A model generated the notes under the pieces. That model was not told the origin of the DNA. It saw only the letters and a list, made by a program, of their open reading frames with translations, and searched no databases. A program made the position numbers and the translations under genes. Shown here one piece after another: positions 620-62,840 of a stretch of DNA of 63,855 nt. The stretch spans positions 1 through 63,855 of the IMG/VR virus record IMGVR_UViG_3300044638_005305. The stretch is one strand, 5' to 3'. The number at the start of each line of letters is the position of its first letter. Position 1 is the first letter of the stretch. Source of the DNA: a virus. Taxonomy: Duplodnaviria; Caudoviricetes.

Positions 620-624
620 TTGGT

Positions 625-46189: not shown

Positions 46190-46202
46190 AAGTAGTTAAG
46201 TA

Positions 46203-46326
46203 TGTTGGGATTTGCCAACAATGTAGATTAGTTTACAGGAATAATGTCGGGGAATATCAACATTTGCAAAAACGCAATCTTTGATTATCAATGATTTATG
46301 TCAAAACTTCTCTTAGCCAGTAGTTA
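46203..46326 (+). other. Composite attI/attP-like cassette docking site A
   Basis: TGTTGG-N6-CCAACA (46203), TGTCGG-N6-TCAACA (46245), IHF consensus TATCAATGATTTA (46286), core TTCTCTTAGCCAGTAG|TTA. Confidence 0.75.
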
Positions 46327-46536
46327 TGAGAAATGTTTTGTCAGAGTATCCTCCAACAATTCTATTGCGGTTTCTAATCCACTTTCCATACCATCTCTCC
46401 ATCTTGCTTCACCATCATCAAATGATTGTGTCAGTTGCCTACTTCTTTCAAGTTGGCTTCGTAAATCTACCAAAACACTTCTCATAACAACAGGTTGTTG
46501 CAATGCGGTTTCGGTACTATGTGTTACATCTTCCAT
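46324..46536 (-). CDS. Cassette-encoded hypothetical protein
   Basis: Starts in the attC loop; the stop is the TTA of the core site. Confidence 0.7.
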   Translation of the reverse strand: MEDVTHSTETALQQPVVMRSVLVDLRSQLERSRQLTQSFDDGEARWRDGMESGLETAIELLEDTLTKHFS

Positions 46537-46605
46537 TTTATTTAGTTTTATCTGTTAATAATAGTTTAGTTCATTTAATCCGCACTGACAACAACCTGCG
46601 GTACG
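46324..46605 (+). mobile_element. Gene cassette A1 with attC-like hairpin (46482-46611)
   Basis: Start GTTATGAGAAATGTTTTG is complementary to CAAAACACTTCTCATAAC (46471-46488); arms CAGGTTGTTGCAATGCGG / CCGCACTGACAACAACCTG; closing GTTA at 46605. Confidence 0.8.
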
Positions 46606-46615
46606 TTACAGCCCC

Positions 46616-46852
46616 CTAAAACCCAACATCATACTTGATGCCATGCTTCTCAAACACTTGCTTCATCTTCTCCACAGATACGCCATTAAATCTTATTGGA
46701 CTACTTACCACTTCCTCCTGACACTTCATTAAGTCATCAAGCATTTCGCATTGATGCTTTAATACAATCCCAATAGCTAAATCAGAAAACGCTTCTTTAG
46801 GCATTTCCTCTTTACTTGCAATAGCAAACAAGTTGGCTAATTCCTCTTTCAT
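46616..46852 (-). CDS. Hypothetical protein
   Basis: ATGA-coupled ORF. Confidence 0.65.
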   Translation of the reverse strand: MKEELANLFAIASKEEMPKEAFSDLAIGIVLKHQCEMLDDLMKCQEEVVSSPIRFNGVSVEKMKQVFEKHGIKYDVGF

Positions 46853-47151
46853 GATTCTTTGTTTATGTAGTTATCTAATCGAGTAATTTTACTTTCCTTA
46901 ATCTCATCTACACTCCTATCCAACCCATGAAGCATCAGCCTTAACTGACTACACATTATCTCTACATCAGCTACCTCCTCTGCTATATTTCCCATCCCAA
47001 TAGACGGATTCCTTCTCCACTTATTAATGGCTTGTATCAATTCAGCACATTCCTCTATCGCCATATCCATTTGCGCTCGAACACCAAACTTAAAAATAGC
47101 TTTCTTGTAAATTGTTTCGGAACTATTTTTCATGCCATTTGGTTTTCTCAA
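46849..47151 (-). CDS. MazG-like nucleotide pyrophosphohydrolase
   Basis: AIEECAELIQAINK...IAEEVADVEIM. Confidence 0.85.
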   Translation of the reverse strand: MRKPNGMKNSSETIYKKAIFKFGVRAQMDMAIEECAELIQAINKWRRNPSIGMGNIAEEVADVEIMCSQLRLMLHGLDRSVDEIKESKITRLDNYINKES

Positions 47152-47951
47152 AACAAAGATAATGACTTAACCCAAATAAACAACTAAAATTGCGGAATTT
47201 GTCAAAATAATTGCAGAATCCGCAATTCGTTTCTAATGATACCAACGCTTTGAGGTACGCTATATCTTAGAGTGTATTAAGATTGACCACTTTTACCCTA
47301 TTCCAATCCCATTTTGTCCTTCTTTCCCCCTCCAACACACCCTCATTTTACACCCCTCTACCATGCAATTTACACCCTATTTCTGTTAAGTATTGTTAAT
47401 GATAAGTATTTTAACAATTTTCCTTTAGTTAGCCATATCAACAATTTACCCAATCCCTTGCGCAATCTACATCTTAGCTGTTTTTATGTAAGCAATTTGG
47501 TCGTGCTGATGTGATGGTTACCTTTTACCCCACCCCCTCCATTTTTTTTGGCAAGCCCGTTTTTTTTGCGCCCCCTCCCTCTCGAATTTAATGGATTCCT
47601 TAAAGTTCCGGTTCAATTTATAAACCTGATGCAGCGCGTGCATAATCTAATATAATTCTAATAGAATTAATACATACTAATGTTGGCGCGTGTCTTGTGG
47701 TTTATGTGTTTATTTTGTAGTGTATCAATCTATTTATTGTATGTTATAACATCTATTCTACTGCATCAAGGTAGGATAAGTATGCGCAACATATTATAAT
47801 TTAGTTTAAATTAAACTAATTAGCGAAATTTCGTTGGATACATAATTTACTTATGCTTCTGGTGAAGCAATTATCCAACAACAAACATTTACAAATTGAT
47901 TTTTTGATTAACTTAGCATTAACGCGCGCGGGCGTATGTCGAACAGGTTAT

Positions 47952-48293
47952 ATGAGTAGAACAGAATTGAATCAAAGTTTAACGGGCGGATATTGCTTGT
48001 ATTTAGTTCGCAGGAAGTTCCCGCAGCTTAGTTGGTTCGGATGCTCAATTTGCGCTTTAATTGGCATTTATGGGCGCTGTACGGCAAAGGTTGCAAGTGA
48101 GCTAACGGGCAACAAAGGAGCGCGAAATAAATTATCTAAATTAGTTGATTCTGGATATATTATAAAGCGGTCAAACTTCTATTATTTAGATAATAAGGGG
48201 CGCGAAGTGTTTAATGAGTATTTTAGCTTGTATAATAGCCGGATGCAAGCAATCAACAAACATTTAGCTGATGAAGTACTAAAGGAGCTTTGA
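47952..48293 (+). CDS. Winged-helix protein
   Basis: LSKLVDSGYIIKR...YYLDNKGRE. Confidence 0.55.
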   Translation: MSRTELNQSLTGGYCLYLVRRKFPQLSWFGCSICALIGIYGRCTAKVASELTGNKGARNKLSKLVDSGYIIKRSNFYYLDNKGREVFNEYFSLYNSRMQAINKHLADEVLKEL

Positions 48294-48553
48294 TAGCCAT
48301 GTACTAAAGGAACGCCAATTTTATCTAATTGGCTGTATTAAGGAATTTTTTTTTAGATTATTTGGGCGGAAATTGCTTAATTTTCATGCTGCTATTTTTG
48401 TGCTATTTATTAGCTATGATTATAACTATTTATTTCTTTTAACTTTTTTTAACATTAGCTTATATCCTTTGGTATTACTACGTTTCATAAATTAGTCTTG
48501 CCTAATTTCATGCTATTTACTTTTTCAATGTTTGTATGTTTGGTTTATGTTTC

Positions 48554-48561
48554 TACCTTTG
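48554..48561 (+). promoter_or_regulatory. Early-region promoter -7 box
   Basis: TACCTTTG about 50 bp before ardA. Confidence 0.55.
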
Positions 48562-48609
48562 ATTTCAGATAGCGCAATTGCTATCAATTAAACCACTAAA
48601 ATAAACAAC

Positions 48610-49182
48610 ATGAAAACGACAACAACAGGCACAGCGCCACAACTATTTTTAACTGATTATGCAAGTTATAACAACGGCAGCCAGTTTGAGTTTGGGCATT
48701 GGGTTGATTTAACGCAATTTTCAGACGCGGACGAGCTTATGGAATACATAGAAACACACTTCGCGGAATGTGACGAAAAAAGCCCGCTCGATAGCCCACG
48801 CGAGGAAATTATGTTCACAGACTTTGAAGGTTTCCCGAAGTGTTTTTATTCAGAAAGTATGGATACGGATACAATGGAAAAACTTTTTGAATTTATAGGC
48901 ATGGATGAGGACGATAGAAAGTTAATTGAAATGTACGCGGACGCAACAGGATACGATATTTCAGATATTGAACTTTCGCACGCGCAAAATAATTTTCATG
49001 GCACAGCGGACAGCGAAGCGGAATTCGCGGAACGTATGGCGGAGGAATGTGGCGAAATTCCAAAGGATATTCCGGCATGGATAGTAATAGACTGGGAAGC
49101 GTCTTGGAACTGTAATTTGCGCCATGATTATATGACAGCAACAGACGAGGACGGAACGATATATTTTTTCCTTAATCATTAA
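48610..49182 (+). CDS. ardA: Antirestriction protein ArdA
   Basis: YASYNNGS..GHWVDL, EEIMFTDFEGFP, FHGTADSEAEFA, IDWE; highly acidic DNA mimic. Confidence 0.88.
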   Translation: MKTTTTGTAPQLFLTDYASYNNGSQFEFGHWVDLTQFSDADELMEYIETHFAECDEKSPLDSPREEIMFTDFEGFPKCFYSESMDTDTMEKLFEFIGMDEDDRKLIEMYADATGYDISDIELSHAQNNFHGTADSEAEFAERMAEECGEIPKDIPAWIVIDWEASWNCNLRHDYMTATDEDGTIYFFLNH

Positions 49183-49281
49183 AACCATCCGCGCTCCTTT
49201 AGTGGTATGCATCGAATGCAGGCGCGGAGCTAATTTATAAACCAAATGACAGGCGCAGTCAATAACAGGCGTAAAACCAAT

Positions 49282-49806
49282 ATGAGAACAGCAAGATTAA
49301 AAGTCTTTAAATTCAATGAATTGACAGACGAAGCAAAAAAGACAGCGATTGAAAAACTTAGCACAATTAACGTTGATTATGACTGGTGGGAATTAACCTA
49401 TGAAGACGCGGAGCAAATAGGACTTAAAATAACTTCTTTTGACCTTGACAGAAACAGACAGGCAAAGGGAATGTTTTTAGATAATGGCATTAGTTGCGCA
49501 AAACTAATTTTAGAGAATCATGGCGAAACGTGCGAAACATACAAGACGGCAAAAAGTTTTTTAGCTGAAATAGAGCAAATAGAAACTAATTTTGAAAGTG
49601 TTGATACTTCGGACTTTGACAACATACAAGAAAAGGAGGACGCAATACAGGACGCTGAATCTGATTTTTTAAACTCAATTTTAGAGGACTATTCTATAAT
49701 ACTGCAAAACGAGTGCGAATATTTGCAAAGCGATGAAGCTATAACTGAAACTATTATAGCCAACGACTACGAATTTACACAGGACGGGAAAATATTTAAT
49801 TCATAA
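49282..49806 (+). CDS. Acidic early hypothetical protein
   Basis: FKFNELTDEAKKTAIE...YLQSDEAITETIIANDYEFTQDG. Confidence 0.75.
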   Translation: MRTARLKVFKFNELTDEAKKTAIEKLSTINVDYDWWELTYEDAEQIGLKITSFDLDRNRQAKGMFLDNGISCAKLILENHGETCETYKTAKSFLAEIEQIETNFESVDTSDFDNIQEKEDAIQDAESDFLNSILEDYSIILQNECEYLQSDEAITETIIANDYEFTQDGKIFNS

Positions 49807-49852
49807 CAAAACCGTAAAAAAAACTATTTTCTATAACCTACAAAAAACCAAT

Positions 49853-50125
49853 ATGAAAGATTTATTTTCAACACCGGAGCTTATCCCCTCAGAAATAATG
49901 GCAATTTTAAACACATTCGAAGACGAAACCTATTCAGAATGTGAGCGGGTAAAATTAGAAATTGAGCAACATGGCTACACTTTTGACTATTATTTAGACG
50001 CACAGCCATATAATCTAAGGAAAGCAAAAACTAAAAAGCCCTGTAATATTTCAGACGATTGCGGAGCTTTTAAAGCGGTTGAAGCTGAACTATTAAGCCC
50101 AAATGGAATAAAAATAGGTTGGTAA
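49853..50125 (+). CDS. Early hypothetical protein
   Basis: ORF with A-rich RBS. Confidence 0.65.
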   Translation: MKDLFSTPELIPSEIMAILNTFEDETYSECERVKLEIEQHGYTFDYYLDAQPYNLRKAKTKKPCNISDDCGAFKAVEAELLSPNGIKIGW

Positions 50126-50207
50126 TATGAAAGCCAAAATTTACAAAACTAATTCCGGGTATTAAGATACATAGAATTAAGATATTTAAACCACTTAATA
50201 AACTAAC

Positions 50208-50453
50208 ATGATAAATATAAGCCCAAACCTATTCAACGCGGATATTTTAGAAGTATTCGCGGACGGGGAGCAAATCGGAACTATTAAAATAGTGCGGGAG
50301 CTTGAAGAGTATGAAGCAAAACCAAAGGACGGGCAACCCGTAACGCTTCGCACTTTAAACCTTTGTAAAAACTATTTTCAAAACTTATGCAAGGGACGGG
50401 AGCGGAAAACAGAAACTAATTCAGAACCACAAAACCAATTGAATTTATTTTAA
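50208..50453 (+). CDS. Early hypothetical protein
   Basis: Ends in QLNLF, a beta-clamp-binding-like motif. Confidence 0.65.
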   Translation: MINISPNLFNADILEVFADGEQIGTIKIVRELEEYEAKPKDGQPVTLRTLNLCKNYFQNLCKGRERKTETNSEPQNQLNLF

Positions 50454-50473
50454 AAACTAAAAACCAATAAAAA

Positions 50474-51013
50474 ATGAAAATTTTAAAAAATTGCAGCGTA
50501 ACTAAACTAAAAGAGTATAGCCGCTCATACGGAAATCCTGAAACAGTATCTTTTGCTTATATTTTTGAGCATGATAAAATAATCATTTGCCTTGATGAAA
50601 TAGGCAGAAACATCCGAACATTTAACAAAGGCACAAAAGTATTGATAAGTTACAAAGGGACTGAAATTTCAGAACGCAGCTTTAAAATAGCGACAAATAA
50701 GGCAGTAAAAGCACATGAGGAAAGGAAAGCCCAAGACAAACTAATACAGGAGGCGCAAATGGCAAAAGAAAGCGAAATAAACGCGCTCCAGTTAGCTAAG
50801 TGGGAGGACTTTTTGAAATCCAATACAGAAAAGCTCAATCAATATGCTGAAATAGTAAGGACAAGACCGAGCAATGCAAGCAGGAGCGGAAATTGGAGAA
50901 GAATTTTAAAACTCAAATTTGCTAAAAATTGCAATTCTGAAAGTTTTGAAAATTGCCCATCACCGGCACAATTAAACGAAACTATTTTTAAACTCATAAA
51001 TCAAACAGCATGA
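50474..51013 (+). CDS. Early hypothetical protein
   Basis: ORF with A-rich RBS. Confidence 0.7.
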   Translation: MKILKNCSVTKLKEYSRSYGNPETVSFAYIFEHDKIIICLDEIGRNIRTFNKGTKVLISYKGTEISERSFKIATNKAVKAHEERKAQDKLIQEAQMAKESEINALQLAKWEDFLKSNTEKLNQYAEIVRTRPSNASRSGNWRRILKLKFAKNCNSESFENCPSPAQLNETIFKLINQTA

Positions 51014-51291
51014 AAAAACCATTAAACAAAACAAGCGAAGCAGTAGGAGCAACAACGGAAACTGATGTTATATTCTACTATCATGAAGCAAACGATGATT
51101 TATTTGCCTTCTTTCCTTCTGATAATTACGACAGCAACGGACTAATGAAAACAAGCTATTCACACATTGGACAGCATTCAGGATGCAGCCCGGAATACAC
51201 AACCGAAGCAAGAAAAGCAACGCCAAAGGAATACGCGGAACTAAAAGCGGAACTAATACAGATAGGCTATTCATTAAACATTTTAAACTAA
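51010..51291 (+). CDS. Early hypothetical protein
   Basis: LFAFFP...SYSHIGQH...ATPKEYAELKAELIQIGY. Confidence 0.7.
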   Translation: MKKPLNKTSEAVGATTETDVIFYYHEANDDLFAFFPSDNYDSNGLMKTSYSHIGQHSGCSPEYTTEARKATPKEYAELKAELIQIGYSLNILN

Positions 51292-51295
51292 TATC

Positions 51296-51481
51296 ATGCA
51301 AAACACATACGGAGTATTAATAGACGGAGCGCATATAGACGTTTCAAAAACGGAACGAGGCGCAAAAACTTATGCTACAAAACATGGATACAGCATTGTA
51401 ACAATCCGGTACAATTGCGGATATGTAGCGGAGCAAATAGCGGAAAAGATTAATAACAAGTGGGTAACCATCAAAATCTAA
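51296..51481 (+). CDS. Early hypothetical protein
   Basis: Packed ORF. Confidence 0.6.
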   Translation: MQNTYGVLIDGAHIDVSKTERGAKTYATKHGYSIVTIRYNCGYVAEQIAEKINNKWVTIKI

Positions 51482-51485
51482 TATC

Positions 51486-51641
51486 ATGCACGATTTATTT
51501 GAAAAACCAATAAGACAAAGGAAAGTAAGGAAAAGGGTTTATGCTTATCAGTACAGAAATGGAGTGATAAACATAAACGGAACTAAGTATCTCGAATACT
51601 CAATAACTGATGCTATCAAAGCATGGAGAAAAGCAAACTAA
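51486..51641 (+). CDS. Early hypothetical protein (51 aa, not in track)
   Basis: MHDLFEKPIRQRK...; same TAATATCATG junction as the previous gene. Confidence 0.55.
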   Translation: MHDLFEKPIRQRKVRKRVYAYQYRNGVININGTKYLEYSITDAIKAWRKAN

Positions 51642-51667
51642 TTAATAAACCAATAAAAACTAAAAAC

Positions 51668-51961
51668 ATGGTCAGAGTACACGAAATTCAAAAAGAAGCG
51701 CAAAGCATAATGCCATTTATTGACCTATATGGCAGCGTCCTTCTGTTCACTATTTTAAAGCAATATCCATTTGTAAGCTGGAGGGACAAAACTATTCCAC
51801 AAGAAGGCAGCCCCACAAGACTAACAAAGGATATTGAAATGGAAAAAGCAAAAGCGCTCAATGTCAAAAAACTAATCGCGCACAAGGACGGAAAAACTAC
51901 CATCTTCACAGATAAGGGAGTATATCAATTTTTCGCAGCAGGACAACAAGTAAAAAATTAA
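51668..51961 (+). CDS. Early hypothetical protein
   Basis: ATG after A-rich RBS. Confidence 0.6.
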   Translation: MVRVHEIQKEAQSIMPFIDLYGSVLLFTILKQYPFVSWRDKTIPQEGSPTRLTKDIEMEKAKALNVKKLIAHKDGKTTIFTDKGVYQFFAAGQQVKN

Positions 51962-51981
51962 TCAAAATAAAAACTAACATC

Positions 51982-52164
51982 ATGAAAAATGAACTAAAAA
52001 AAGCAATCATTGACTTCATTTTTGAAAATGAAAAGGAATTTCAACTACCAAACAAAACGATGGAGAAATTTCGCGCCTACATCTATGACAGCTCCGGCAG
52101 CTATTTAATAGGCGGAAACGAAGTAAGAGATTTTATTATTAACGCTATAAAACTAATAAGCTAA
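51982..52164 (+). CDS. Early hypothetical protein
   Basis: Packed ORF. Confidence 0.6.
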   Translation: MKNELKKAIIDFIFENEKEFQLPNKTMEKFRAYIYDSSGSYLIGGNEVRDFIINAIKLIS

Positions 52165-52349
52165 TGGAACAGACATACAGACAACAAGAAAAGGAAATCC
52201 GAGTACTTCTGGGCAGAATCAAACAGAAAACAAGAGGCTTTGTGATGCAAACCAAAGACCCATACTTTGAAGATTTGCAGAAAGTAAAGGCAGATTTGAC
52301 CGAAATAGACGCTTTTTTAAGTGATAAGTACTTGACAAGCAAAAAGTAA
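52164..52349 (+). CDS. Early hypothetical protein
   Basis: TAATG-coupled ORF. Confidence 0.6.
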   Translation: MEQTYRQQEKEIRVLLGRIKQKTRGFVMQTKDPYFEDLQKVKADLTEIDAFLSDKYLTSKK

Positions 52350-52374
52350 TTTTAAACCAATAAACAAAAAAACC

Positions 52375-52686
52375 ATGAAAAACTACATAATACAAGACAG
52401 AGAAGCCGGAAATGAAATTGAATCATTCTCTACCATTCAAGAAGCTCAAAAAACATTGCTTCAATATGAGCAAACCGATAAAAGAGAAGGCAACTACACG
52501 CCCGGCTTCTATGAGATAAAAACCGCTACATTCTCAAATCTAAAATCATTCTACATCGAATTTTTGAATAAAAAGAAAGGCTATTCAAAAGATGTAGCCT
52601 ACTTTGAAACCTATGATAAGGCAATTAGCTGGGGACGCGAATTTTTAGAAAACTTCAATAGTGACATGATAAAGATAAGTTTATGA
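52375..52686 (+). CDS. Early hypothetical protein
   Basis: Packed ORF. Confidence 0.65.
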   Translation: MKNYIIQDREAGNEIESFSTIQEAQKTLLQYEQTDKREGNYTPGFYEIKTATFSNLKSFYIEFLNKKKGYSKDVAYFETYDKAISWGREFLENFNSDMIKISL

Positions 52687-52967
52687 AAGCGCAAATCTAC
52701 AAAACCAATAACGGATATGAAGTGCTAACAAGCGATAGGCGACTATACTTGATTGACACAACGCAAACTAAGTTATTCAAACTGCTTATAGGGCAAGTTG
52801 GCTCATCATGGCAAAGTACTGGAAAACTAATTTACGGAGCGATACCCAACAGAATCAAAACAATATTTTTTCAAATTCAAAAACAAAGCCAAAATGAAAG
52901 CAATACAAGCGGGCACAACAATTGTACCATACGACAAAGTTGTATCTATCCAACTATTAAGCAGTGA
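52683..52967 (+). CDS. Early hypothetical protein
   Basis: ATGA-coupled ORF. Confidence 0.55.
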   Translation: MKAQIYKTNNGYEVLTSDRRLYLIDTTQTKLFKLLIGQVGSSWQSTGKLIYGAIPNRIKTIFFQIQKQSQNESNTSGHNNCTIRQSCIYPTIKQ

Positions 52968-53064
52968 CAAAGATAGCGCAGCGATTTTTTACGACACATT
53001 AGGGATGCTACATAGATGTTCAAACATTGAATACCAAGCGTTTATTAATCGCCTTAAAAACTAA
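52894..53064 (+). CDS. Early hypothetical protein (56 aa, not in track)
   Basis: MKAIQAGTTIVPYDKVV...; fills the gap to the next ATG. Confidence 0.5.
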   Translation: MKAIQAGTTIVPYDKVVSIQLLSSDKDSAAIFYDTLGMLHRCSNIEYQAFINRLKN

Positions 53065-53065
53065 G

Positions 53066-53239
53066 ATGATAACAGAATTTGACATCATTCACATTAAATC
53101 TTTGATACACAAACGGAAAAGCCGTTTAAGGTCGTATATCAATATGTCATCGAGGGCTGATGTAAATAGCGAAATAAACCAATTAGAAACAGACATTCAA
53201 TCCCTTGAAAGGATATTATCGGTAATTCAAAAAAACTAA
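53066..53239 (+). CDS. Coiled-coil hypothetical protein
   Basis: ATG immediately after the previous stop. Confidence 0.55.
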   Translation: MITEFDIIHIKSLIHKRKSRLRSYINMSSRADVNSEINQLETDIQSLERILSVIQKN

Positions 53240-53263
53240 TTTGGTAATTTAAAACGTTCTTTG

Positions 53264-53420
53264 TATTTTTGTTGCAGTTGATTTAACACGAGGTAAGAGT
53301 CGGGGGATGAATCATATCGAAACTAAATTGCACATTTCAATATTTTTCCTTGCCTATCAGGCAGAAAACGTCCCGAAACTCTTACCATAAGCTAAAAACT
53401 TATGCCTTCGGGCGTTTTTT
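53264..53420 (+). promoter_or_regulatory. Promoter plus leader/attenuator-like structure upstream of the integrase
   Basis: TATTTTTG; GGTAAGAGT pairs with ACTCTTACC; alternative AAAACGTCCCGAA/TTCGGGCGTTTT terminator-like stem. Confidence 0.55.
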
Positions 53421-53766: not shown

Positions 53767-54981
53767 ATGAGCATCAGAATCAAACTAAGAAAGGACGCGC
53801 CAAACAAACAAGGTCAATATCCAATAGTTTTGGTATATCAAAAAGGCAGGAAAGAAACTATTTTCAGCACAGGCAAATACACCAATGCTGAATTTTTTAC
53901 CCAAGATACACAGAATCCGCTTTCCAGTGGGCAAGACTACAAAGCCAATAACATACTTATCAGAAACTTATACTCAAAACTGAATAACATAGCAGATGGC
54001 TATTTTATGGCAAATAACGAGTATCCGAGCAACGAGTGGGTAAAGTTACAATGGAACACTAAAAACGCTCCAAATCAGCCTGTATTTGATTTCTACGATA
54101 GGTTTATGCAATATCAGCAGACGAGGGGAGCAAGTTCGGTAAGTTATGGTACAGCCATAAACTATAAAAACGTAAAAAATAAACTAATCGGATACGAAAG
54201 AAAGTCCGGGCATCCGATAGCCTTTGAATCATTCAATGAATCTTTTGCCAATAAATTCAGCCAATATCTGATTAAGGAACACGACCTATTACCTAATTCA
54301 GTAGGCGAGAAACTAAAAATCGTAAAAACTTTCCTACGTTGGTGCATAAAACAAGGCGTGAGAATCCCATCAGCTAATTTAGAGGCATTTAGGGGCGGAA
54401 ATGATAAAACATGGAAGCTACATCTAACTATTGAAGATTTGAAGGCTCTTGCCCAAACTAATACGCAATACGAAGAAACTAAAGATGGTTTCCTTTTGCA
54501 ATCTTGTCTTGGAGTGAGGTATTCCGACCTGCAAACTATCGTTTCAACTAAAATAATCAAGGAGGGCGAAGACTTCTACTACATAACCAATACTCAAAAA
54601 ACCAATAAGTTGATTAAGGTGAAGTTGATTGACATGGCTAAAGAGATATTGAACAGAAGAAGCGGAAACTGGATACCATCTAATATCCAAATGAATACAG
54701 AATTAAAACTAATTTTTAAATCTATACGAGGATTTGATGAAATGGTAAGTGTATCGCAGGGTAGTGGAAACTTAAAAAGGGAGCATACAAAACCGAAATA
54801 TGAATTTGTATCAACCCATACAGCAAGGATAAGCTATATCAATATCATGAGAAACTTAGGTGTGGATGATTTTACTATTTCAAACATTACCGGGCAAAGC
54901 CTATCTACTTTGAGAGGATATTATCATTCATCAGCCAAAGATACAGATTCAGCTATGAATGCGCTTAATTTAGCTTTTTGA
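53767..54981 (+). CDS. int: Tyrosine recombinase/integrase (Bacteroidota type: arm-binding, SAM-like and catalytic domains)
   Basis: N-terminal YPIVL..STG arm domain; GVRYSD, TQKT, STHTAR, ITGQ..LRGYY. Confidence 0.92.
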   Translation: MSIRIKLRKDAPNKQGQYPIVLVYQKGRKETIFSTGKYTNAEFFTQDTQNPLSSGQDYKANNILIRNLYSKLNNIADGYFMANNEYPSNEWVKLQWNTKNAPNQPVFDFYDRFMQYQQTRGASSVSYGTAINYKNVKNKLIGYERKSGHPIAFESFNESFANKFSQYLIKEHDLLPNSVGEKLKIVKTFLRWCIKQGVRIPSANLEAFRGGNDKTWKLHLTIEDLKALAQTNTQYEETKDGFLLQSCLGVRYSDLQTIVSTKIIKEGEDFYYITNTQKTNKLIKVKLIDMAKEILNRRSGNWIPSNIQMNTELKLIFKSIRGFDEMVSVSQGSGNLKREHTKPKYEFVSTHTARISYINIMRNLGVDDFTISNITGQSLSTLRGYYHSSAKDTDSAMNALNLAF

Positions 54982-54997
54982 ATTGTCTTGGATTCCA

Positions 54998-55099
54998 TGT
55001 TGCTATTTACCGACTTTTGCTTTTTAAATGTTGGCTTTTACCGACATTTGTTTTTATAAGTTATTGATTATCATTGAAACTTCTCTTAGCCAATAGTTA
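54998..55099 (+). other. Composite attI/attP-like cassette docking site B
   Basis: TGTTGC-N6-CCGACT (54998), TGTTGG-N6-CCGACA (55029), IHF consensus on minus strand (55057-55069), core TTCTCTTAGCCAATAG|TTA; starts 17 bp after the int stop. Confidence 0.78.
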
Positions 55100-55348
55100 G
55101 CGGTCATTGCCTTTCGACCTTGACAGCATATCTGTTATTGCTTTACAATTATTATCAAACTCTTCATCGGACATTTCAGCTATTTCTCTACCTATTTTAT
55201 GTATTTCGCTATTCTCGTCATCTAATGGGTCAATAGATGGCAACGAACCGCTAACACTAAATAAAAGCAATAGCTCGCTTAGTGCTTGTTGAACAGGCAT
55301 CGTGCCTTCATCAACCTTTATCAATATATTTTCAATTTGTTCTTTCAT
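55097..55348 (-). CDS. Cassette-encoded hypothetical protein
   Basis: Starts in the attC loop, reads through the arm (LLLLFSVSGSLP), stops on the core TTA. Confidence 0.7.
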   Translation of the reverse strand: MKEQIENILIKVDEGTMPVQQALSELLLLFSVSGSLPSIDPLDDENSEIHKIGREIAEMSDEEFDNNCKAITDMLSRSKGNDR

Positions 55349-55375
55349 ATCGCTACTGCTTTTATTATTTTACCG
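55097..55375 (+). mobile_element. Gene cassette B1 with attC-like hairpin (55249-55381)
   Basis: GTTAGCGGTCATTGCC vs GGCAACGAACCGCTAAC (55239-55255); arms AATAAAAGCAATAGC / GCTACTGCTTTTATT; GTTA at 55375. Confidence 0.8.
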
Positions 55376-55755
55376 TTATAAGCAAACGGTAGCTACTTTG
55401 AAACAGTCTGATTAATTTTCCTTATAGTCATTACTACTTCATTCCATTCATTATTTAATTCAGGGCAAATTTTAGCTATATCTATTCCTTTTAATGCACA
55501 TTCGTTAAATAATGGCGCTAATTCTTTTTCTCTGCTTTCTAATGATTTTAAAGCCCATCCTTTAGTAAACATATCTACTTCGCTTTGCTCATCGTTTAAT
55601 ATTTTAATTGAATATTCTATCCAGTCTTTCATATTTTTATTGTTTTTTAAATTAATTTTTCATAGTAACATTCGTAACCGTCAGCTTATAACAGCACCTA
55701 ATAAACAGGCGGACATCTACTAGGTTTCCACCGCCCGTCTATTAGCTGCAAAACG
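55376..55755 (+). mobile_element. Gene cassette B2 with attC-like hairpin (55686-55761)
   Basis: GTTATAAGCAAACGGT vs ACCGTCAGCTTATAAC (55677-55692); arms CTAATAAACAGGCGG / CCGCCCGTCTATTAG; GCAAAACGTTA at 55755. Confidence 0.82.
55393..55632 (-). CDS. Cassette-encoded hypothetical protein
   Basis: Entirely inside cassette B2. Confidence 0.7.
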   Translation of the reverse strand: MKDWIEYSIKILNDEQSEVDMFTKGWALKSLESREKELAPLFNECALKGIDIAKICPELNNEWNEVVMTIRKINQTVSK

Positions 55756-55771
55756 TTATCTGAATGACTTC

Positions 55772-55832
55772 TCATACCTTATCGGGTATAATTCAAGCTA
55801 ATGAATGATATATCATACCCGTCAGGGTATAA
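55772..55832. repeat. Pair of palindromic boxes TCATACC-N6-GGTATAA
   Basis: 55772-55791 and 55813-55832, 41 bp apart. Confidence 0.7.
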
Positions 55833-55889
55833 ACTGCAGATTTTTATCCAAATACTGAATCCCTATCTTTAAATCTGCTTATCCATAAC

Positions 55890-57689
55890 TCAAAAGCACC
55901 AGTCTGGATAATCTTCATCTTTTTTGTTTTCAATTAGCTTTGCCATAGGGTCACCACTTTCAAATACAAACCTCCTAAATCCTCTATGAAGATTAAAAAT
56001 AGCAATTCCTTTTTTACCTACTACTTTTTGCCGTCTTATTTTTTTAGTGTGAAACTCGCAGACCGTTGAATCTGGATTCTTTTGGTGTTCTGGTCTGTGA
56101 TATACCAATATATTATCCATTTTATTATTCCACATCGCTCCATCCGCAATATCAAATACATCTGGACATGGATAATTGCCAGTTGAATCCTTAACCATCA
56201 TTTTTGGGTGCGCTACAATAAAAAAGTAAATATTGTTTTGTTGAGCAAATCGGCTGCAATCAGCTAAAAAGGTTTCTAAATATTTATCAGAGCGACCTCC
56301 GCTTTTTGCGTATTCATTTGTCATTTGATTAAAAGGGTCAATTATGCATCCGCTAACCTTTTCCTTAATCACTAATTCCAAAAATCTTTCTTTGATGTAT
56401 TCAGGGGTCGGACTTATTTCTTTTGGATATACGTAGAAAAAATGCTTTGATAGTTCGTCATAAATCCGCTCGTATTCGCTTCTGCTAACTCTGTAATTTG
56501 AATCGGGTGTTAATTTCATTCCGCAATATATTTCTACTAAATCATGATAAAATTCATGAGCGGGGTTATCCTCTGGAGAAAACAATGCAAATTTTTCCTT
56601 ATATAGGATAACCCTCATAAGCATATACCACTTCAAAAAAGTTGATTTTCCATAGTTTCCTATTCCAGTCAATAAAGTTATTTCACCTCTTTTTAGCTTA
56701 AAATGACTATCAATATCCTCAACTCCTATTCCATACAATTGTTCATAACCACTGTCATAAATTTTCAAAGCATCAGCCTTCACATCTTCGCCAAAAATTA
56801 CATCTTTAGGTTTTATGTCAGGATTAAAAATATCAGCATCAATTTCTATTTCTTTTCGATTAACCTTTTCAACAAGCACTTCTCTTTCAAATTGAGCCGT
56901 TCCATATTTGGATTTGTTTTGTCGGTATGCAGATTTTACTACTCTTTCTAATTCTGAAAATGGAAAAGAATCACCACCGATTTGAAATTCAAAAGCGCAT
57001 AAAGAAATAGTATCACTTTCGGCTATTCCAAACCTACAACAAGCCCCAGCAAGTTTAAAAAGGAATATATTTCTTTCACCAGTTGCAAATGCGTTCCCTT
57101 TGTTTATTTGCCATTTTAATAACTTTTGGAAACTTTCTGCATAATTACTCCGCTCATAGGTTGTTTGTTGCTCTATTGCCTTAATTTTGCGAAACACGCT
57201 TGGGTTTTCAGCTATGTATATTTCAGGGTCGTAACTTTCATAACACACACGAGATTCATTTATGCCTGAATTGTCTATTTCAGTGAATAATTCTTTTAAT
57301 GCCTGAAAATGCTCACGATGCTTTTTGCCGTCCGCTATTTTTACAAGCGCCTTTAATCCGTTTCCACTTGGTGAAATCCAACAAGCATAAATAAACTCAT
57401 TTGCACACAATAAAGATTTTTCATGATTAACATCATCTAAATTATCAAAGTCTAAACAAATTAGCTTTGAATGATTAATCAGTCCAATATCCGTTCTTTC
57501 TTTAAATTCGCCTGAGAAACAAACACTCGGTAGGTTCTGTTTTAGCTTATTGCTACGCTCTTTGTCAAGTTGCGTTCTAATTTCATCAATCTTTTCTTTT
57601 GACTTACCAATTCTTATTCGCTCCAAAGCCTTTTCAACTGGAATGTAATTTGGTGTTTTGTCAAAAATGTTTTTGTATATAGTTACCAT
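55890..57689 (-). CDS. Primase-helicase (BT4734/VirE-N primase, PriCT, DnaB/Twinkle-like helicase)
   Basis: ICLDFD, ISPSGNGLK, GERN, TGIGNYGKST, IIDPFN, VAHP. Confidence 0.9.
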   Translation of the reverse strand: MVTIYKNIFDKTPNYIPVEKALERIRIGKSKEKIDEIRTQLDKERSNKLKQNLPSVCFSGEFKERTDIGLINHSKLICLDFDNLDDVNHEKSLLCANEFIYACWISPSGNGLKALVKIADGKKHREHFQALKELFTEIDNSGINESRVCYESYDPEIYIAENPSVFRKIKAIEQQTTYERSNYAESFQKLLKWQINKGNAFATGERNIFLFKLAGACCRFGIAESDTISLCAFEFQIGGDSFPFSELERVVKSAYRQNKSKYGTAQFEREVLVEKVNRKEIEIDADIFNPDIKPKDVIFGEDVKADALKIYDSGYEQLYGIGVEDIDSHFKLKRGEITLLTGIGNYGKSTFLKWYMLMRVILYKEKFALFSPEDNPAHEFYHDLVEIYCGMKLTPDSNYRVSRSEYERIYDELSKHFFYVYPKEISPTPEYIKERFLELVIKEKVSGCIIDPFNQMTNEYAKSGGRSDKYLETFLADCSRFAQQNNIYFFIVAHPKMMVKDSTGNYPCPDVFDIADGAMWNNKMDNILVYHRPEHQKNPDSTVCEFHTKKIRRQKVVGKKGIAIFNLHRGFRRFVFESGDPMAKLIENKKDEDYPDWCF

Positions 57690-58273
57690 CCTGTATCTCC
57701 TTCTAAAATTGATTTTGCAATATTGCTTTTCGGTGTTATAGAATCAGACTTTATCCATTCAGCATTGAATCCTGACCAACTCTTATTTACACACATATAT
57801 AAAACATAATCTACACTCATGCCACTTTTTTCTATTTCAGACAAAAAAGAATTTAAAGCTGTTTTAGTGTTTGTAGCCTTTTTGGTTTTCCTCACTCTCA
57901 ACCAATCCTCTACTAAATCTTTATTTTCTGCAAGTTTTAATAATTCAGACTTAAAATTAAACATATCTTTCTCTTTCTCTTTCTCTTTCTCTTTCTCTTG
58001 TAGCAAAGGGTCTTGTGTACCCCCTTGCGCACCCCCTTGCGTAGGGGTTAATTTTATTCCACTCTTGTCTTCATAACCTTTTACTTGGGAATCAATATTA
58101 TGCTTTTGAGATATGTATGCAAACTTAGCCATTCCATTTAAAATAGGCTCGATACCAAAAAATTGTTTATTAATTACAGCATCATAAAAAGCAAGTCTAT
58201 CTTTATCAGATAACTCGTTGGCTACATCCATATAACTTTTAAAAAATTTGAAAGCTAATCTATGTGTTGTCAT
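57683..58273 (-). CDS. Phage replication initiator (DUF6291-like N-terminus)
   Basis: FKFFKSY..LSDKDRLAFYDAV, EKEKEK linker, C-terminal WLRVRK...WSGF; precedes the helicase. Confidence 0.7.
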   Translation of the reverse strand: MTTHRLAFKFFKSYMDVANELSDKDRLAFYDAVINKQFFGIEPILNGMAKFAYISQKHNIDSQVKGYEDKSGIKLTPTQGGAQGGTQDPLLQEKEKEKEKEKDMFNFKSELLKLAENKDLVEDWLRVRKTKKATNTKTALNSFLSEIEKSGMSVDYVLYMCVNKSWSGFNAEWIKSDSITPKSNIAKSILEGDTGW

Positions 58274-58378
58274 ATAATAAAAAAGCCCCCTTTGTAGTAG
58301 TGCTTACATTGGGGGCATTAGAGCCTAAAATCAAATTCCATCAGGCACTACTCTCATGGAAATCTTATTGCAAATATA
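58274..58378 (-). promoter_or_regulatory. Promoter plus attenuator-like leader of the replication genes
   Basis: TATATTTG; GCCCCC/GGGGGC+T6 terminator whose loop GCACTACT is complementary to an upstream loop AGTAGTGC. Confidence 0.65.
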
Positions 58379-58382
58379 ACTT

Positions 58383-58661
58383 TTATTCTTTAGTATCTAA
58401 ATTTTTATCCAAAAAAGATTTATAAATAATTGAATACCCAGCTAAATCTTTCAAAGTATCTGCTATGCTTTCGTTCTTAGCTTGTTTACCTTGCAAATTT
58501 CGCAGCCTTGCAACTTTAATAGCTATCATTACCATAAAGACCTTTTCCACGTCTATTTGGGCATAATCAGCAGCAAATTCAAATACTTCAAATTCTTTGC
58601 CGTAGTCGTGACCTTTTGAAAGTAAGGTCGCTTCGAGTTGTTTTAGGTTTTCTGCTATCAT
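58383..58661 (-). CDS. Nucleotide-modification-associated (DUF1599/Nmad-like) protein
   Basis: KGHDYG...KVARL...ESIADTLKDLAGY. Confidence 0.75.
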   Translation of the reverse strand: MIAENLKQLEATLLSKGHDYGKEFEVFEFAADYAQIDVEKVFMVMIAIKVARLRNLQGKQAKNESIADTLKDLAGYSIIYKSFLDKNLDTKE

Positions 58662-59065
58662 TTTGTTTGCATTTGCAACTCTTCGCCAGTTAAAGCAAAG
58701 TAAATGTTTTGAAGTTGGTGTAAGTATTGGATTTTAGATGCACAACTAAACCAGTTTAAATTATCTTTATTTTCTTGAATAAATAAATTTGTTTTAAGGT
58801 TTTTATCTGCAAAAATAGCAATACTATCTTTAATAAAACTGCCATCTAAATCTTTTTCAAACCTGAACTTCAAAAGCCATTCATCTGTTACTGGAATGGG
58901 CTTTATTTGCTTTAGGCTAAAACAGCCAATACTTTTATTGTCCTTTAATAACCTAACAGTATTATCACATTGTAAGCTATGTATTGGTAAATCAAATTCC
59001 ATGTACTCATCGTTTATTATACAAAGTGTAACAAGATTACCAATTCGAAATTCGTTTAATTTCAT
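58658..59065 (-). CDS. Hypothetical protein
   Basis: EFRIGN..IKPIPVTDEWLLKF..IQYLHQLQNIYFALTGEEL. Confidence 0.8.
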   Translation of the reverse strand: MKLNEFRIGNLVTLCIINDEYMEFDLPIHSLQCDNTVRLLKDNKSIGCFSLKQIKPIPVTDEWLLKFRFEKDLDGSFIKDSIAIFADKNLKTNLFIQENKDNLNWFSCASKIQYLHQLQNIYFALTGEELQMQTK

Positions 59066-59073
59066 ATATTTTT

Positions 59074-59310
59074 TTATTTGGTTAAGTATTCAAGTTCTTT
59101 AATTCGATTCTCAATAGTGTTTCTTAACCCGCTACTAAATCGGAATTTAAATGTCATTTGGCGCAGTCGGTTACAATCTGTAACTTCCGATAGCTTAACT
59201 CCTTTTAAATCGCCAAAATCAAAAACAAAGTCGGATTTTAGATTTTCGATTTCGTTGCCAATTACATCAAAGGCAATTAGCTTGTTGGAAATTCTTTTGA
59301 CTTTATACAT
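59074..59310 (-). CDS. Hypothetical protein
   Basis: Packed ORF; FGDLKGVKLSEV. Confidence 0.6.
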   Translation of the reverse strand: MYKVKRISNKLIAFDVIGNEIENLKSDFVFDFGDLKGVKLSEVTDCNRLRQMTFKFRFSSGLRNTIENRIKELEYLTK

Positions 59311-59725
59311 TGTGTTTTTTTTGTTTGTCTAAAAACCATTGAGGGATTTCTCGGGATGCGTTTTCGTACTTTTTCACTCCCATAGAGTTAATGACTTTTT
59401 CATCATCGCCTATATACAATACAATCTTATATACCAATTGATTATCATTTTCATCATCCCAAAAATAAGCCATTTCACCAATTTGTAACGGAGGTTCTGC
59501 ATCTATTGGAGTAAATCCGCCTTTTTCGAGTGAGTATTCAAACAAAGATAATATAGGAGATTTTGAACCCAAATGAGTACGTCCTGTTTCATCATAAATA
59601 TCATCAAGCCCCATATCATCAAACCACACTAAATAAGAGTAATCCTCTTCATAGTGATTGAGTTTTACCTCACCCCATCCATACCTCACATCAAATACCT
59701 TAGTTCCGATTTCTAATTTCTTCAT
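59303..59725 (-). CDS. Hypothetical protein
   Basis: GTKVFDVRYGWGEV SH3-like start. Confidence 0.7.
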   Translation of the reverse strand: MKKLEIGTKVFDVRYGWGEVKLNHYEEDYSYLVWFDDMGLDDIYDETGRTHLGSKSPILSLFEYSLEKGGFTPIDAEPPLQIGEMAYFWDDENDNQLVYKIVLYIGDDEKVINSMGVKKYENASREIPQWFLDKQKKHNV

Positions 59726-59726
59726 T

Positions 59727-59984
59727 TTATTTTGTTTTAGTTGTGAATAATTTTCTTAATGATTTCCTATCAGTAGATTTCATTTGATACTCATAATAAT
59801 ATCCTGCAGTTCCGTATCTGGTCTTAAATTTAATCTTTTTTCTTTTGCAGTAAAATTTGTGTTTGCGCTCCAGTTCGTCAATTCGAGTTGGCAGTTTGAC
59901 AGTTCCAAATTCTTTGACTCCTTTTAAAGTTGTTAACACTTCGCCCGAAAGCAAGGCGTTGAAAATCGCTTGTTTTTGTGTCAT
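59727..59984 (-). CDS. Winged-helix protein
   Basis: ALLSGEVLTTL...LPTRIDELE. Confidence 0.65.
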   Translation of the reverse strand: MTQKQAIFNALLSGEVLTTLKGVKEFGTVKLPTRIDELERKHKFYCKRKKIKFKTRYGTAGYYYEYQMKSTDRKSLRKLFTTKTK

Positions 59985-60242
59985 TTAATTGATTTTATGG
60001 TTTAAAAATATGTCTATTGAAAGTTTATCCGAATAATTAAAAAGCATTTCCAAATCCATCTTTTTTTTCGATTCAAATTCTATGATTCTCCACCTGCCAA
60101 CATTTAACCAGTTAGCCATAAATGATTGTGTGAATCCTGCACTATCTCTTAAATGTCGGCAATCGTCAACAATCTTGTTGTAATTATCTTTGAATTGTTG
60201 GTAATTCTCGACATGGTTATTTTCTAAATCGTTGGTATCCAT
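59985..60242 (-). CDS. XRE-like HTH protein overlapping docking site C
   Basis: LRDSAGFTQSFMANWLNVGRWRIIEFES. Confidence 0.7.
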   Translation of the reverse strand: MDTNDLENNHVENYQQFKDNYNKIVDDCRHLRDSAGFTQSFMANWLNVGRWRIIEFESKKKMDLEMLFNYSDKLSIDIFLNHKIN

Positions 60243-60278
60243 AGGTTTGGTTTAAAACATTCTCTTACCCAATAGTTA
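60154..60278 (+). other. Composite attI/attP-like cassette docking site C
   Basis: TGTCGG-N6-TCAACA (60154), TGTTGG-N6-TCGACA (60196), IHF-like box (60225-60237, one mismatch), core TTCTCTTACCCAATAG|TTA. Confidence 0.75.
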
Positions 60279-60665
60279 GCGGAAATGCCGTTTTTAGGCA
60301 TCCCACTTTATTAAGTCCTTCACTTCTTCAATGGCTTGTTCTAAAGTTTCTCCGTTACCTAAAAATGCTTCTGTATTATAGGTTCGTCCAAACTCCGCAA
60401 CTATTCTTATTACTTGCTCTTTAGAAAAAACGGCACTATCCGCTAACATAGGGTTGGAAGAAATTTTAAATGCTTTCAGTGCTTCGATTACCGCCTTTGC
60501 TTCATTGTAGCTAATCAAAATACCTTCTTGCATTCCCCAGCTTACATCATGCATATTCTCGCCTTCTTTTTCCGCAAAGGCTACGCTTTTCTCTAATCTT
60601 TTAATTAAGTGTTCCATATTTATATTTTTGTTAAGCATTTAAAACTATCTCCAACCCTCGTAACG
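60276..60665 (+). mobile_element. Gene cassette C1 with attC-like hairpin (60441-60671)
   Basis: GTTAGCGGAAATGCCGTTTTT vs AAAAACGGCACTATCCGCTAAC (60426-60447); arms AGGGTTGGAAGAAATTTTAAATGCTT / AAGCATTTAAAACTATCTCCAACCCT; GTTA at 60665. Confidence 0.82.
60294..60617 (-). CDS. Cassette-encoded hypothetical protein
   Basis: Starts in the attC loop and reads through the arm (NPMLADSAV). Confidence 0.7.
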   Translation of the reverse strand: MEHLIKRLEKSVAFAEKEGENMHDVSWGMQEGILISYNEAKAVIEALKAFKISSNPMLADSAVFSKEQVIRIVAEFGRTYNTEAFLGNGETLEQAIEEVKDLIKWDA

Positions 60666-60887
60666 TTATAAGCCATTTTGTAAATCCTTACACATCATTT
60701 CACAAGCCTTGCCAAATCCTACTGCAAAGCTATTTGCTTTCTCTTGTGCCATTTCATCACTACCATACAAGCTAACAAAGTGCTTTTGTAGTTTAATCAA
60801 ATTTTCACCAGAAAAACGGCTTATAACATCAGTTATAAGTAATGGCTGGCTTTGTGGTTTATCAATGTTTTTTGCTTCTATTGTCAT
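60666..60887 (-). CDS. Cassette-encoded hypothetical protein
   Basis: Starts in the attC loop (PLLITDVISRF); stop on the core TTA. Confidence 0.7.
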   Translation of the reverse strand: MTIEAKNIDKPQSQPLLITDVISRFSGENLIKLQKHFVSLYGSDEMAQEKANSFAVGFGKACEMMCKDLQNGL

Positions 60888-60943
60888 TTGTTCTAAATTT
60901 AAAGTGAGTAGTTCTAATCAGCCACTACTCATAGCTGTAACCG
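60666..60943 (+). mobile_element. Gene cassette C2 with attC-like hairpin (60821-60949)
   Basis: GTTATAAGCCATTTT vs AAAAACGGCTTATAAC (60812-60827); arms CAGTTATAAGTAATGGCTG / CAGCCACTACTCATAGCTG; GTTA at 60943. Confidence 0.82.
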
Positions 60944-60959
60944 TTACATCGAAATCCGC

Positions 60960-62792: not shown

Positions 62793-62840
62793 GCAAAAGT
62801 ATTTATAAATACAAGAAATGAAGCCGTAAACATTCCTTTT

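Follow-up and report, generated by a model that had tools for sequence, protein, structure and literature searches.

Integrons and CALINs carry one-gene cassettes in head-to-tail arrays, each cassette with one imperfect palindrome that has AAC...GTT feet, an unpaired spacer, conserved mismatches and an inverse core matching the cassette's own start. Integron cassettes enter at a docking site that adjoins a tyrosine recombinase gene, while CALINs are orphan arrays that lack the enzyme. Xer/dif elements, among them the folded attP of CTX phage and the pdif modules of Acinetobacter plasmids, are moved by host XerCD acting at dif-like sites. Related sites have been described in phages: the portions of Qi et al. 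(2023; PMC9892861) drawn on here report 17 CALINs and a total of 21 phages with integron components, show that IntI1 recombined five of six phage attC sites, including one of two from Polaribacter phage P12002L, and treat the attC sites of virulent phages as bacterial integron components. PeSL cassettes of T4-type phages, as presented in the parts of two reports used here (PMC2839356, PMC4122927), are small accessory genes bounded by a repeated stem-loop of promoter and terminator motifs and shuffled between relatives by homology. Here, a 63,855-nt stretch of viral DNA (the window; IMG/VR record IMGVR_UViG_3300044638_005305) was analysed, in which five small units are probably mobile cassettes, each with one gene, that belong to an integron-like system of site-specific recombination circulating among Bacteroidota phages. 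We found no description of this system as such in print.

Results

Three dispersed loci with a common core, seen earlier by inspection of the letters, were confirmed by exact matching: TTCTCTTASCCARTAGTTA, a 16-nt core followed by TTA, occurs at 46308-46326, 55081-55099 and 60260-60278, all on the plus strand (3 found, 0.06 expected; none of 100 shuffles reached 3), with no additional copy in the window when up to 3 mismatches were allowed. Palindromic boxes of the form TGTYGG-N6-YCRACA lie at six places in the window, five of them at the three docking sites (12 matches with both strands counted, 1.07 expected). The box at docking site B was also called as a terminator-like hairpin on the plus strand, and those at docking site C fall within the 5' part of an ORF at 59985-60242. 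Outside the window, 10 of 14 exact-core matches lack a cassette signature and look like chance; in L001 and L152 the core is followed by a verified cassette, and no TGTYGG-N6-YCRACA boxes accompany the identical core in either.

Table 1. Docking sites, cores, cassettes and recombinase gene in the window (a slash marks the junction).
Feature	Position	Strand	Details
Docking site A, two palindromic boxes	46203-46262	.	TGTYGG-N6-YCRACA at 46203-46220 and 46245-46262; motif count
Core A (attI-like)	46308-46323	+	Junction G46323/T46324
Cassette w1	46324-46605	+	282 nt; folded attC-like site 46474-46605
w1 ORF	46324-46536	-	70 aa; no family match
P0001	53767-54981	+	Divergent arm-type tyrosine recombinase, 404 aa; ends 100 nt before core B
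Docking site B, one exact palindromic box	55029-55046	.	Motif count
Core B (attI-like)	55081-55096	+	Junction G55096/T55097
Cassette w2a	55097-55375	+	279 nt; folded site 55241-55375
w2a ORF	55097-55348	-	83 aa
Cassette w2b	55376-55755	+	380 nt; folded site 55678-55755
w2b ORF	55393-55632	-	79 aa
Docking site C, two palindromic boxes	60154-60213	.	60154-60171 and 60196-60213; motif count
Core C (attI-like)	60260-60275	+	Junction G60275/T60276
Cassette w3a	60276-60665	+	390 nt; long folded site ~60433-60665
w3a ORF	60294-60638	-	114 aa
Cassette w3b	60666-60943	+	278 nt; folded site 60813-60943
w3b ORF	60666-60887	-	73 aa

The layout proposed earlier, with units of 282 nt after core A, 279 + 380 nt after core B and 390 + 278 nt after core C that start at G/TTA and end in a hairpin, also held. 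All five units start with TTA after a G and end in ...(A/C)CG before TTA. Their hairpins are imperfect, 78-233 nt long, and have an asymmetric internal loop (5' side 1-2 nt, 3' side 5-6 nt); as modelled, each forms an attC-type imperfect palindrome (R''-L''-loop-L'-R') with AAC/GTT triplets and unpaired bases, as do three units of the relative G001. The R' boxes are GTTATGA, GTTAGCG, GTTATAA, GTTAGCG and GTTATAA, none of which fits GTTRRRY. All five ORFs are antisense to the integron attI-to-attC direction, with the minus-strand start inside the hairpin in four. The w2b site belongs to a widespread AGCACCTA...TAGCTGCAAAACG subtype (covariance model: 68.7 bits, E 2.5e-15). Our covariance model of one subtype found one of the five window sites, which are thus heterogeneous; an automated unit detector recovered three of the five units, with 0-4 false matches (mean ~1.5) per shuffled window at its loosest setting. 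The hairpins had also been likened to the Flavo-1 RNA motif (RF01705), which occurs in Bacteroidetes (PMC2864571, in the part cited), but this was not borne out: at the gathering score neither Flavo-1 nor any other Rfam family matched the window or 13 related loci, and none matched 45500-61500 at E up to 10.

Complementarity was scanned with an ungapped 15-mer, comparing each inverse core with its own unit's start and with the next unit's start. Own starts matched at 14/15 positions for w1 (next start 8/15), 10/15 for w2a (8/15), 13/15 for w2b (10/15) and 14/15 for w3b (8/15). The scan missed cassette w3a (9/15, next start 10/15), since the inverse core of this unit has a 1-nt indel and is 233 nt away from the end of the unit; this core, spotted by eye at ~60433-60448, is paired in the predicted fold. 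The earlier claim that all five inverse cores pair with their own starts stands for four units by scan and for five by fold. When the five window units and three units of the relative G001 were folded (ViennaRNA, RNA parameters), sites joined to their own start were more stable by 7.4-14.8 kcal/mol than those with the real downstream bases, and the own start ranked first of 12 alternative starts in 8/8 units.

The same signature extends beyond the window. Of 67 subtype elements, 28 have 1500 nt or more of flanking sequence on each side. A match to GTTA followed by the complement of the 10 nt that precede TAAC (at most 2 mismatches) lies upstream in 17 of these; no match lies downstream or at the next unit's start, and none was obtained with another element's bases; the upstream matches directly follow another site's end or a ...TAG core. 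The inner stem covaries: among 40 sequences, three of its base pairs have changed on both sides in 12, 23 and 14 cases. In phages P12002L and Freya the fourth base covaries with the inverse core of its own unit, which locates the junction within GTT. As in integrons, the first bases of a cassette are complementary to its own inverse core, implying a G/TT crossover in the circle.

One cassette occurs in unrelated contexts, and breakpoints between relatives fall precisely at G/TTA. Cassette w2a recurs at 98-100% identity in five other viral contigs (L131-L135), which represent four other contexts and where homology is limited to 55094/55096-55380/55399 and ends at G/TTA on both sides, with different left and right neighbours. 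At site C the window has two cassettes, G001 three and L159 two; the sets differ, all begin at the G/TTA of the core, and homology to G001 and to L159 stops at core C. A G001 cassette at this site encodes a Mom-family protein (E 4e-69). Cassette w3a has no relative among viral contigs. Different cassettes with G/TTA breakpoints, which the earlier note had predicted among relatives, were thus seen at site C and for w2a; the empty docking sites that it named as the other expected outcome were not, nor was any circle or excision joint. Together, the folds and the exact breakpoints support its reading of the units as discrete cassettes of attC-like geometry at several attI-like sites.

Natural array variants are present in cultured Polaribacter phages. 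Freya_10 consists of Freya_1 and an additional 4,942 nt placed exactly behind the G of a site beside an Xer-like recombinase gene, with flanks 100% identical over 5,362 and 2,576 nt. Across five Freya isolates, differences begin only at the G/TT beside the recombinase gene, and four different first cassettes follow the common ...GGGGTG/TT; as in integrons, the newest block lies beside the docking site. P12002L has units with the own-start signature around its methyltransferase genes.

Arrays of this kind are associated with an Xer-like recombinase in other phages. An Xer-like tyrosine recombinase of 276-298 aa is encoded in seven of 50 virus records that bear the elements, and in all seven (six distinct) a G/TTA junction and cassettes begin 20-70 nt from its start codon; these arrays include w2b-type sites, and the ORFs of 7/7 run towards the recombinase gene. 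The enzymes score 155-187 bits against the IntI model (cut-off 265 bits) and align to it in two pieces, skipping profile positions ~181-238, which are the IntI-specific insert. Neither an Xer-like nor an IntI recombinase was found in 10 of 11 near-complete element-bearing genomes, no protein family is common to more than five of 12 such genomes, and six Xer-like loci in four Bacteroidota metagenome-assembled genomes (MAGs) lack any array up to 1.5 kb away. PF00589 and TIGR02249 have no match in the window, which contains neither an IntI-type nor an Xer-like recombinase; its arrays are thus orphans, like CALINs. No IntI gene lies beside any window core, and the absence of a classical intI-attI-Pc unit, as first stated, holds for the window but not for the other phages, which have an integrase-attI unit with the Xer-like enzyme. 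That statement also needs amending in that the window does hold a tyrosine recombinase, P0001.

P0001 has Arm-DNA-bind_5 and Phage_int_SAM_5 domains and matches XerC weakly (E 4e-4). R, K, H, R, Q and Y are kept in seven relatives (43-62% identity), with Gln at the usual second His position throughout the clade. L165 (52% identity), the only viral-contig relative found, has a docking core and cassette ~430 nt past the stop codon.

A search with a pattern specified by 28 nt located the hairpin subtype in 64 viral-contig stretches and in 8 stretches of 185,579 species genomes, the latter all in MAGs (seven labelled Bacteroidota-type). The window belongs to a lake-water phage, and its arrays are part of a widespread integron-like shuffling system of Bacteroidota phages.

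Discussion

In the mechanism that we propose, each cassette would have one recombination site that is complete only in the circular form, where an inverse core ending in TAAC would be followed by an inner stem-loop, a 5-6-nt unpaired spacer and G/TTA with ~10 further bases; once integrated, these last bases lie at the opposite end of the unit. A tyrosine recombinase would join the site, folded as a single strand, to a docking site ...TAG/TTA with crossover within GTT, adding or removing cassettes at three places in the window genome. The window phage, lacking an Xer-like enzyme, may itself capture cassettes, its arrays being served by an enzyme of the host or of a co-infecting phage, acting in trans, or may have just inherited them.

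More tentatively, and with somewhat less than even confidence, we suggest that the Bacteroidota phages have their own integron analogue, in which a short Xer-like enzyme without the IntI insert would act on folded cassette sites and serve a cassette pool, including anti-restriction genes, that unrelated virulent phages exchange at co-infection; genomes like that of the window phage would hold several docking sites ready, with the enzyme supplied in trans. If true, this would amount to a second way, independent of the first, of capturing genes as integrons do, mainly in phages, using an enzyme without the insert held necessary for recombining folded attC sites. It would offer unrelated phages a route to share small accessory or counter-defence genes, such as the Mom-family cassette at site C of the relative. 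The "integrase" of flavobacterial phages, read as a sign of a temperate lifestyle in the part of Bartlau et al. (PMC8776804) cited here, would need rereading, since in Freya it adjoins a variable cassette array; the cultured Polaribacter phages would provide a bench-testable system. Like Xer/dif elements, this system has an Xer-family recombinase and moves DNA modules by short sites (one a folded single strand there), but it differs in the phage-borne enzyme of some genomes and in the long attC-like hairpin on each cassette.

It is unlikely, though the best placed of the alternatives, that the phage is self-sufficient, with P0001 as the cassette recombinase acting on the three composite docking sites and the TGTYGG-N6-YCRACA boxes perhaps guiding it. 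Every docking site has at least one such box, hardly any lie elsewhere, the P0001 gene ends close to core B, its R, K, H, R and Y positions are kept in the seven relatives, and L165 has a similar arrangement past its stop. However, two cases of a P0001-type gene near a core are too few, the 50 element-bearing records hold no P0001 homologue, the boxes are missing beside the same core in L001 and L152, and the clade has Gln for the second His. Arm-type integrases, moreover, normally serve lysogeny and usually have attP right there.

We regard it as improbable that the units are ordinary integron cassettes (CALINs) from host chromosomal integrons moved by host IntI, the reading of Qi et al. (2023). 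The IntI1 assays cited above favour it, as do the P12002L units with the same own-start signature, the comparison being made at the level of the phage rather than of single sites. P12002L, a flavobacterial phage without an integrase and with attC-type sites around its methyltransferase genes, is a close known case, but the parts of PMC9892861 used here describe no Xer-like recombinase, docking sites or multi-locus arrays. Against this reading, viral contigs have the tested subtype far more often than genomes do, and the array-side recombinases fall below the IntI cut-offs and lack the insert. Unlike integrons, the phage sites have R' boxes of GTTA plus variable bases, an asymmetric spacer and an outer stem of ~14 bp with a fixed 2-nt mismatch, the phage ORFs are reversed and often start in the site, and one phage genome can hold several docking sites.

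That the hairpins are regulatory RNA or PeSL-like promoter-terminator modules, with genes shuffled by homologous recombination, is very improbable. They do lie between co-directional small genes in an early region, and PeSL cassettes are a phage precedent. Yet no hairpin foot is followed by a T run, no Rfam family matched, none of the five sites was flagged with a promoter or terminator signal, and the region is near expectation for promoters (54, 61.6 expected; the scan covers the sigma-70 type, not the Bacteroidota type) and terminators (12, 9.8 expected). Homologous exchange in a shared hairpin, further, would not keep inverse cores matched to the starts of their own units, and the breakpoints here lie at one phosphodiester position, and the exact junctions carry a circular-permutation signature. 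Least credible of all, to the point of near-dismissal, are transposons that an HUH (Y1) transposase moves as single strands, as in the IS200/IS605 and REP kinds. Such elements would fit folded-hairpin sites, a fixed short boundary word and small units, but need two subterminal hairpins in the IS200/IS605 type where each unit has one, and sit poorly with head-to-tail arrays at docking sites beside tyrosine recombinase genes and with a window that has no Y1 transposase (PF01797) or serine recombinase match, in family searches that also missed P0001.

Integron-like cassette exchange, the reading preferred here, is not the sole source of mosaicism in this region: the window and G001 are also set apart by three indels whose breakpoints show neither GTTA nor a hairpin. 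At locus 2, homology to G001 resumes ~90-100 nt past the last G/TTA.

Description

The five units of the window belong to an integron-like system as its cassettes; in the window genome they are orphans. A pattern scan of the window places TTCTCTTASCCARTAGTTA at 46308, 55081 and 60260, on the + strand only and with no further copy at up to 3 mismatches. The expected count is 0.06 and none of 100 shuffles reached 3 matches, which confirms the claim of an earlier note that three loci share this core followed by TTA; we refer to these as docking (attI-like) sites A, B and C. That note had also divided the sequence behind the cores into five units starting at G|TTA (table), and the window sequence agrees, with all five boundaries reading ...(A/C)CG|TTA. 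Genes near the units are all on the minus strand, and each unit holds one ATG-started ORF, which in four of five cases starts inside the site and reads through its 5' arm. PHROG and Pfam gave no matches for the five ORFs. The window stretch is present in 24 lake-water sequencing runs.

Units of the window, their ORFs, and matches of the inverse core to unit starts (ungapped 15-mer comparison)
Unit	Position	Placement	Minus-strand ORF (aa)	Own-start match	Next-unit-start match
w1	46324-46605	after core at 46308	70	14/15	8/15
w2a	55097-55375	after core at 55081	83	10/15	8/15
w2b	55376-55755	directly after w2a	79	13/15	10/15
w3a	60276-60665	after core at 60260	114		
w3b	60666-60943	directly after w3a	73	14/15	8/15

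Near the 3' end (+ strand) of each unit lies an inverse core of ~14 nt ending in TAAC, the reverse complement of G plus the first bases of the same unit. TAAC is followed by 1-2 bases that stay unpaired, then by a long inner stem-loop, a further 5-6 unpaired bases (often AAAAC) and G|TTA. The arm before TAAC pairs with its own unit's start, as the earlier note had described, in w1, w2a, w2b and w3b by 15-mer comparison and in w3a by fold; the w3a inverse core sits 233 nt before the unit end with a 1-nt indel, visible in the fold and missed by the ungapped scan. In folding energies computed with RNA parameters, joining to the own start beats the real downstream bases by 7.4-14.8 kcal/mol in 5/5 window units and in 3/3 units of G001, a related viral contig, and the own start ranks first among 12 alternative starts in all eight. 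We infer circles and a choice of strand. A scan for sigma-70-type promoters and intrinsic terminators shows no excess of either, with 0/5 sites flagged. The suggested identity with the Flavo-1 RNA motif (RF01705) falls away, as neither it nor any other Rfam family matches.

Exact breakpoints are seen at site C. The 22-kb contig G001 is collinear with window 55844..63181..1..7024 at 86-97% identity; homology ends at 60278 (core plus TTA) and restarts at 60960, and the G001 insert consists of three different units with the window's architecture, the first encoding a Mom-family protein (E 4e-69). This Mom-family DNA-modification gene, at L014 (G001) 8172-8957, is a cassette at the relative's site C. 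A metagenome contig, L159, shares left flank, core and right-hand gene with the window, and between core and gene it carries two units that are different again. Window, G001 and L159 differ after core C and thus represent three alleles with one left breakpoint at G|TTA, as had been predicted for relatives carrying different cassettes. On the right side, ...AAAACG| of G001 abuts the stop codon of a DnaA-C-like gene, and the window has 16 extra bases. Three other window-G001 indels are without such features, one being an HNH endonuclease gene. This NUMOD4 plus HNH gene (window 62100-62690), absent from G001 with breakpoints clean at gene boundaries, is probably a homing endonuclease. A CTTTCT/TCTCTT repeat run at 57965-58000 borders a segment replaced by unrelated sequence in G001.

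Neither the w3a ORF nor the 141-aa ORF next to site A has relatives in viral contigs, which leaves site A without any relative to compare. At site B the sole relative, G001, differs in gene content, with a break that does not fall at G|TTA. A verified cassette follows the window's 16-nt core in four of 14 external matches (L001, L004, which is G001, L152 and L159); the remaining 10 are without the cassette signature and look like chance. Empty docking sites, one of two outcomes that the earlier note expected in relatives, were not found among these 14 matches. Among 50,697 deposited phage records, the search for near relatives gave a single 129-nt match only, and a 90-nt site query had no match.

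Unit w2a is mobile between viral genomes. Five viral contigs, from records of 33.8 to 169 kb, carry its 83-aa ORF at 100% identity, and DNA homology of these copies to the window is limited to 55094/55096-55380/55399, at 98-100%. To their left the copies adjoin another ...TAG core or one of three site ends that differ from each other, and to their right three other unit starts. Eight more contigs match only 55243-55385, the site part of w2a, at 88-95%, so that the site plus the first 33-44 codons is itself a shared module.

The w2b site subtype was searched by its two conserved boxes, 15-45 nt apart, which turn up in 64 stretches of viral contigs (67 copies with 40 distinct sequences) and in only 8 stretches of a one-genome-per-species set covering 185,579 species. 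All 8 of the latter come from MAGs, and 7 carry the label Bacteroidetes, Bacteroidota, Flavobacterium or Sphingobacteriales. The inner stem of the subtype covaries. Flanks of 1500 nt or more on each side are available for 28 of the 67 copies; 17 of these 28 have the own-start complement upstream (with at most 2 mismatches in 10), compared to 0/28 in each of three controls. Near-complete genomes show chained arrays when scanned with a simple detector; G029, for example, has arrays of 5 and 4 units with the same core ahead of each. Covariance model R1, built on one site subtype, recovers only w2b in the window and is too narrow for site counting.

Elsewhere, the sites are linked to Xer-like recombinases. 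Of 50 element-bearing virus records, 7 (1/11 near-complete) encode a 276-298-aa recombinase (PF00589, E 1e-34 to 1e-45), and in 7/7 the G|TTA junction and cassettes start 20-70 nt from its start codon. These proteins fall below the cut-offs for XerA, XerC, XerD and IntI, and align to the IntI model in two pieces, skipping profile positions ~181-238. Six Xer-like loci in 4 Bacteroidota MAGs, a small sample, have no array within 1.5 kb. A single shared phage-encoded enzyme was rejected, as no protein family is common to more than 5 of 12 near-complete element-bearing genomes (BLASTP).

Searches of the window with PF00589, the IntI model, Y1 transposase and resolvase gave no match; an enzyme serving the window phage is something we infer. 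ORF 53767-54981 (P0001) nevertheless has the domains Arm-DNA-bind_5 and Phage_int_SAM_5 and matches XerC weakly over the full length; the gene stops 100 nt short of core B. In the seven closest relatives of P0001, at 43-62% identity, the residues R, K, H, R and Y are kept and Gln replaces the usual second His. As a single query against viral contigs P0001 found no relatives, and the 50 element-bearing records hold no homologues. One viral contig, L165, encodes a relative of P0001 and has a docking core ~430 nt beyond the stop of that gene. In both available contigs (window and L165) the P0001-type gene is closely followed at its 3' end by a docking core. P0001, the proteins P0002-P0008 and L165 1351-2559 form a small arm-type integrase clade whose catalytic domain escapes PF00589.

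The Xer-like recombinase type that adjoins arrays in the virus records also occurs in cultured phages, at ~30% identity: Polaribacter phages Freya and Leef and Cellulophaga phage Ingeline have it under the annotation 'integrase'. In Freya and Leef, rows of small genes lie ahead of the 'integrase' with the same junction logic. Freya_10 equals Freya_1 plus 4,942 nt that sit exactly between the G of the recombinase-side site and the TT of Freya_1's first cassette, with 100% identical flanks. Behind an identical ...GGGGTG|TT, the first cassette comes in four different forms among Freya_1, 5, 6, 8 and 10. The ten Freya isolates (L162 and L166-L170 among them) are 44.0-48.9 kb in size, and in the five compared the cassette array beside the 'integrase' accounts for the size range. 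Units with the own-start signature also occur in Polaribacter phage P12002L, whose small-gene region has a Mom-like gene and several methyltransferases. The only earlier work found on attC sites in phages is Qi et al. 2023 (PMC9892861), in which P12002L attC sites were assayed with IntI1. The main text of Bartlau et al. 2021 (PMC8776804) has 0 mentions of integron, cassette, attC, hairpin, indel, insertion or variable region, and the supplements of both papers may bear on the point.

Palindromic boxes (TGTYGG-N6-YCRACA) are found at all three docking sites (46203-46262, 55029-55046 and 60154-60213), with an extra box at 7617-7634 (one mismatch). In L001 and L152 the same core has no such boxes next to it; the boxes probably serve as operators for the phage's own regulator. 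A regulator-like protein of 85 aa is encoded at 59985-60242. Two ATACC-N5/6-GGGTAT palindromes lie at 55770-55830, in the interval that separates the last site B cassette from the primase gene; G001 does not share this stretch. Window 1-850 and 62982-63855 repeat each other at 95-96% and G001 spans the join of the window's ends, so either the genome is circularly permuted or the record joins two variants. An ERF-family annealing protein is encoded by ORF 71-709, which has a counterpart at 63052-63714.
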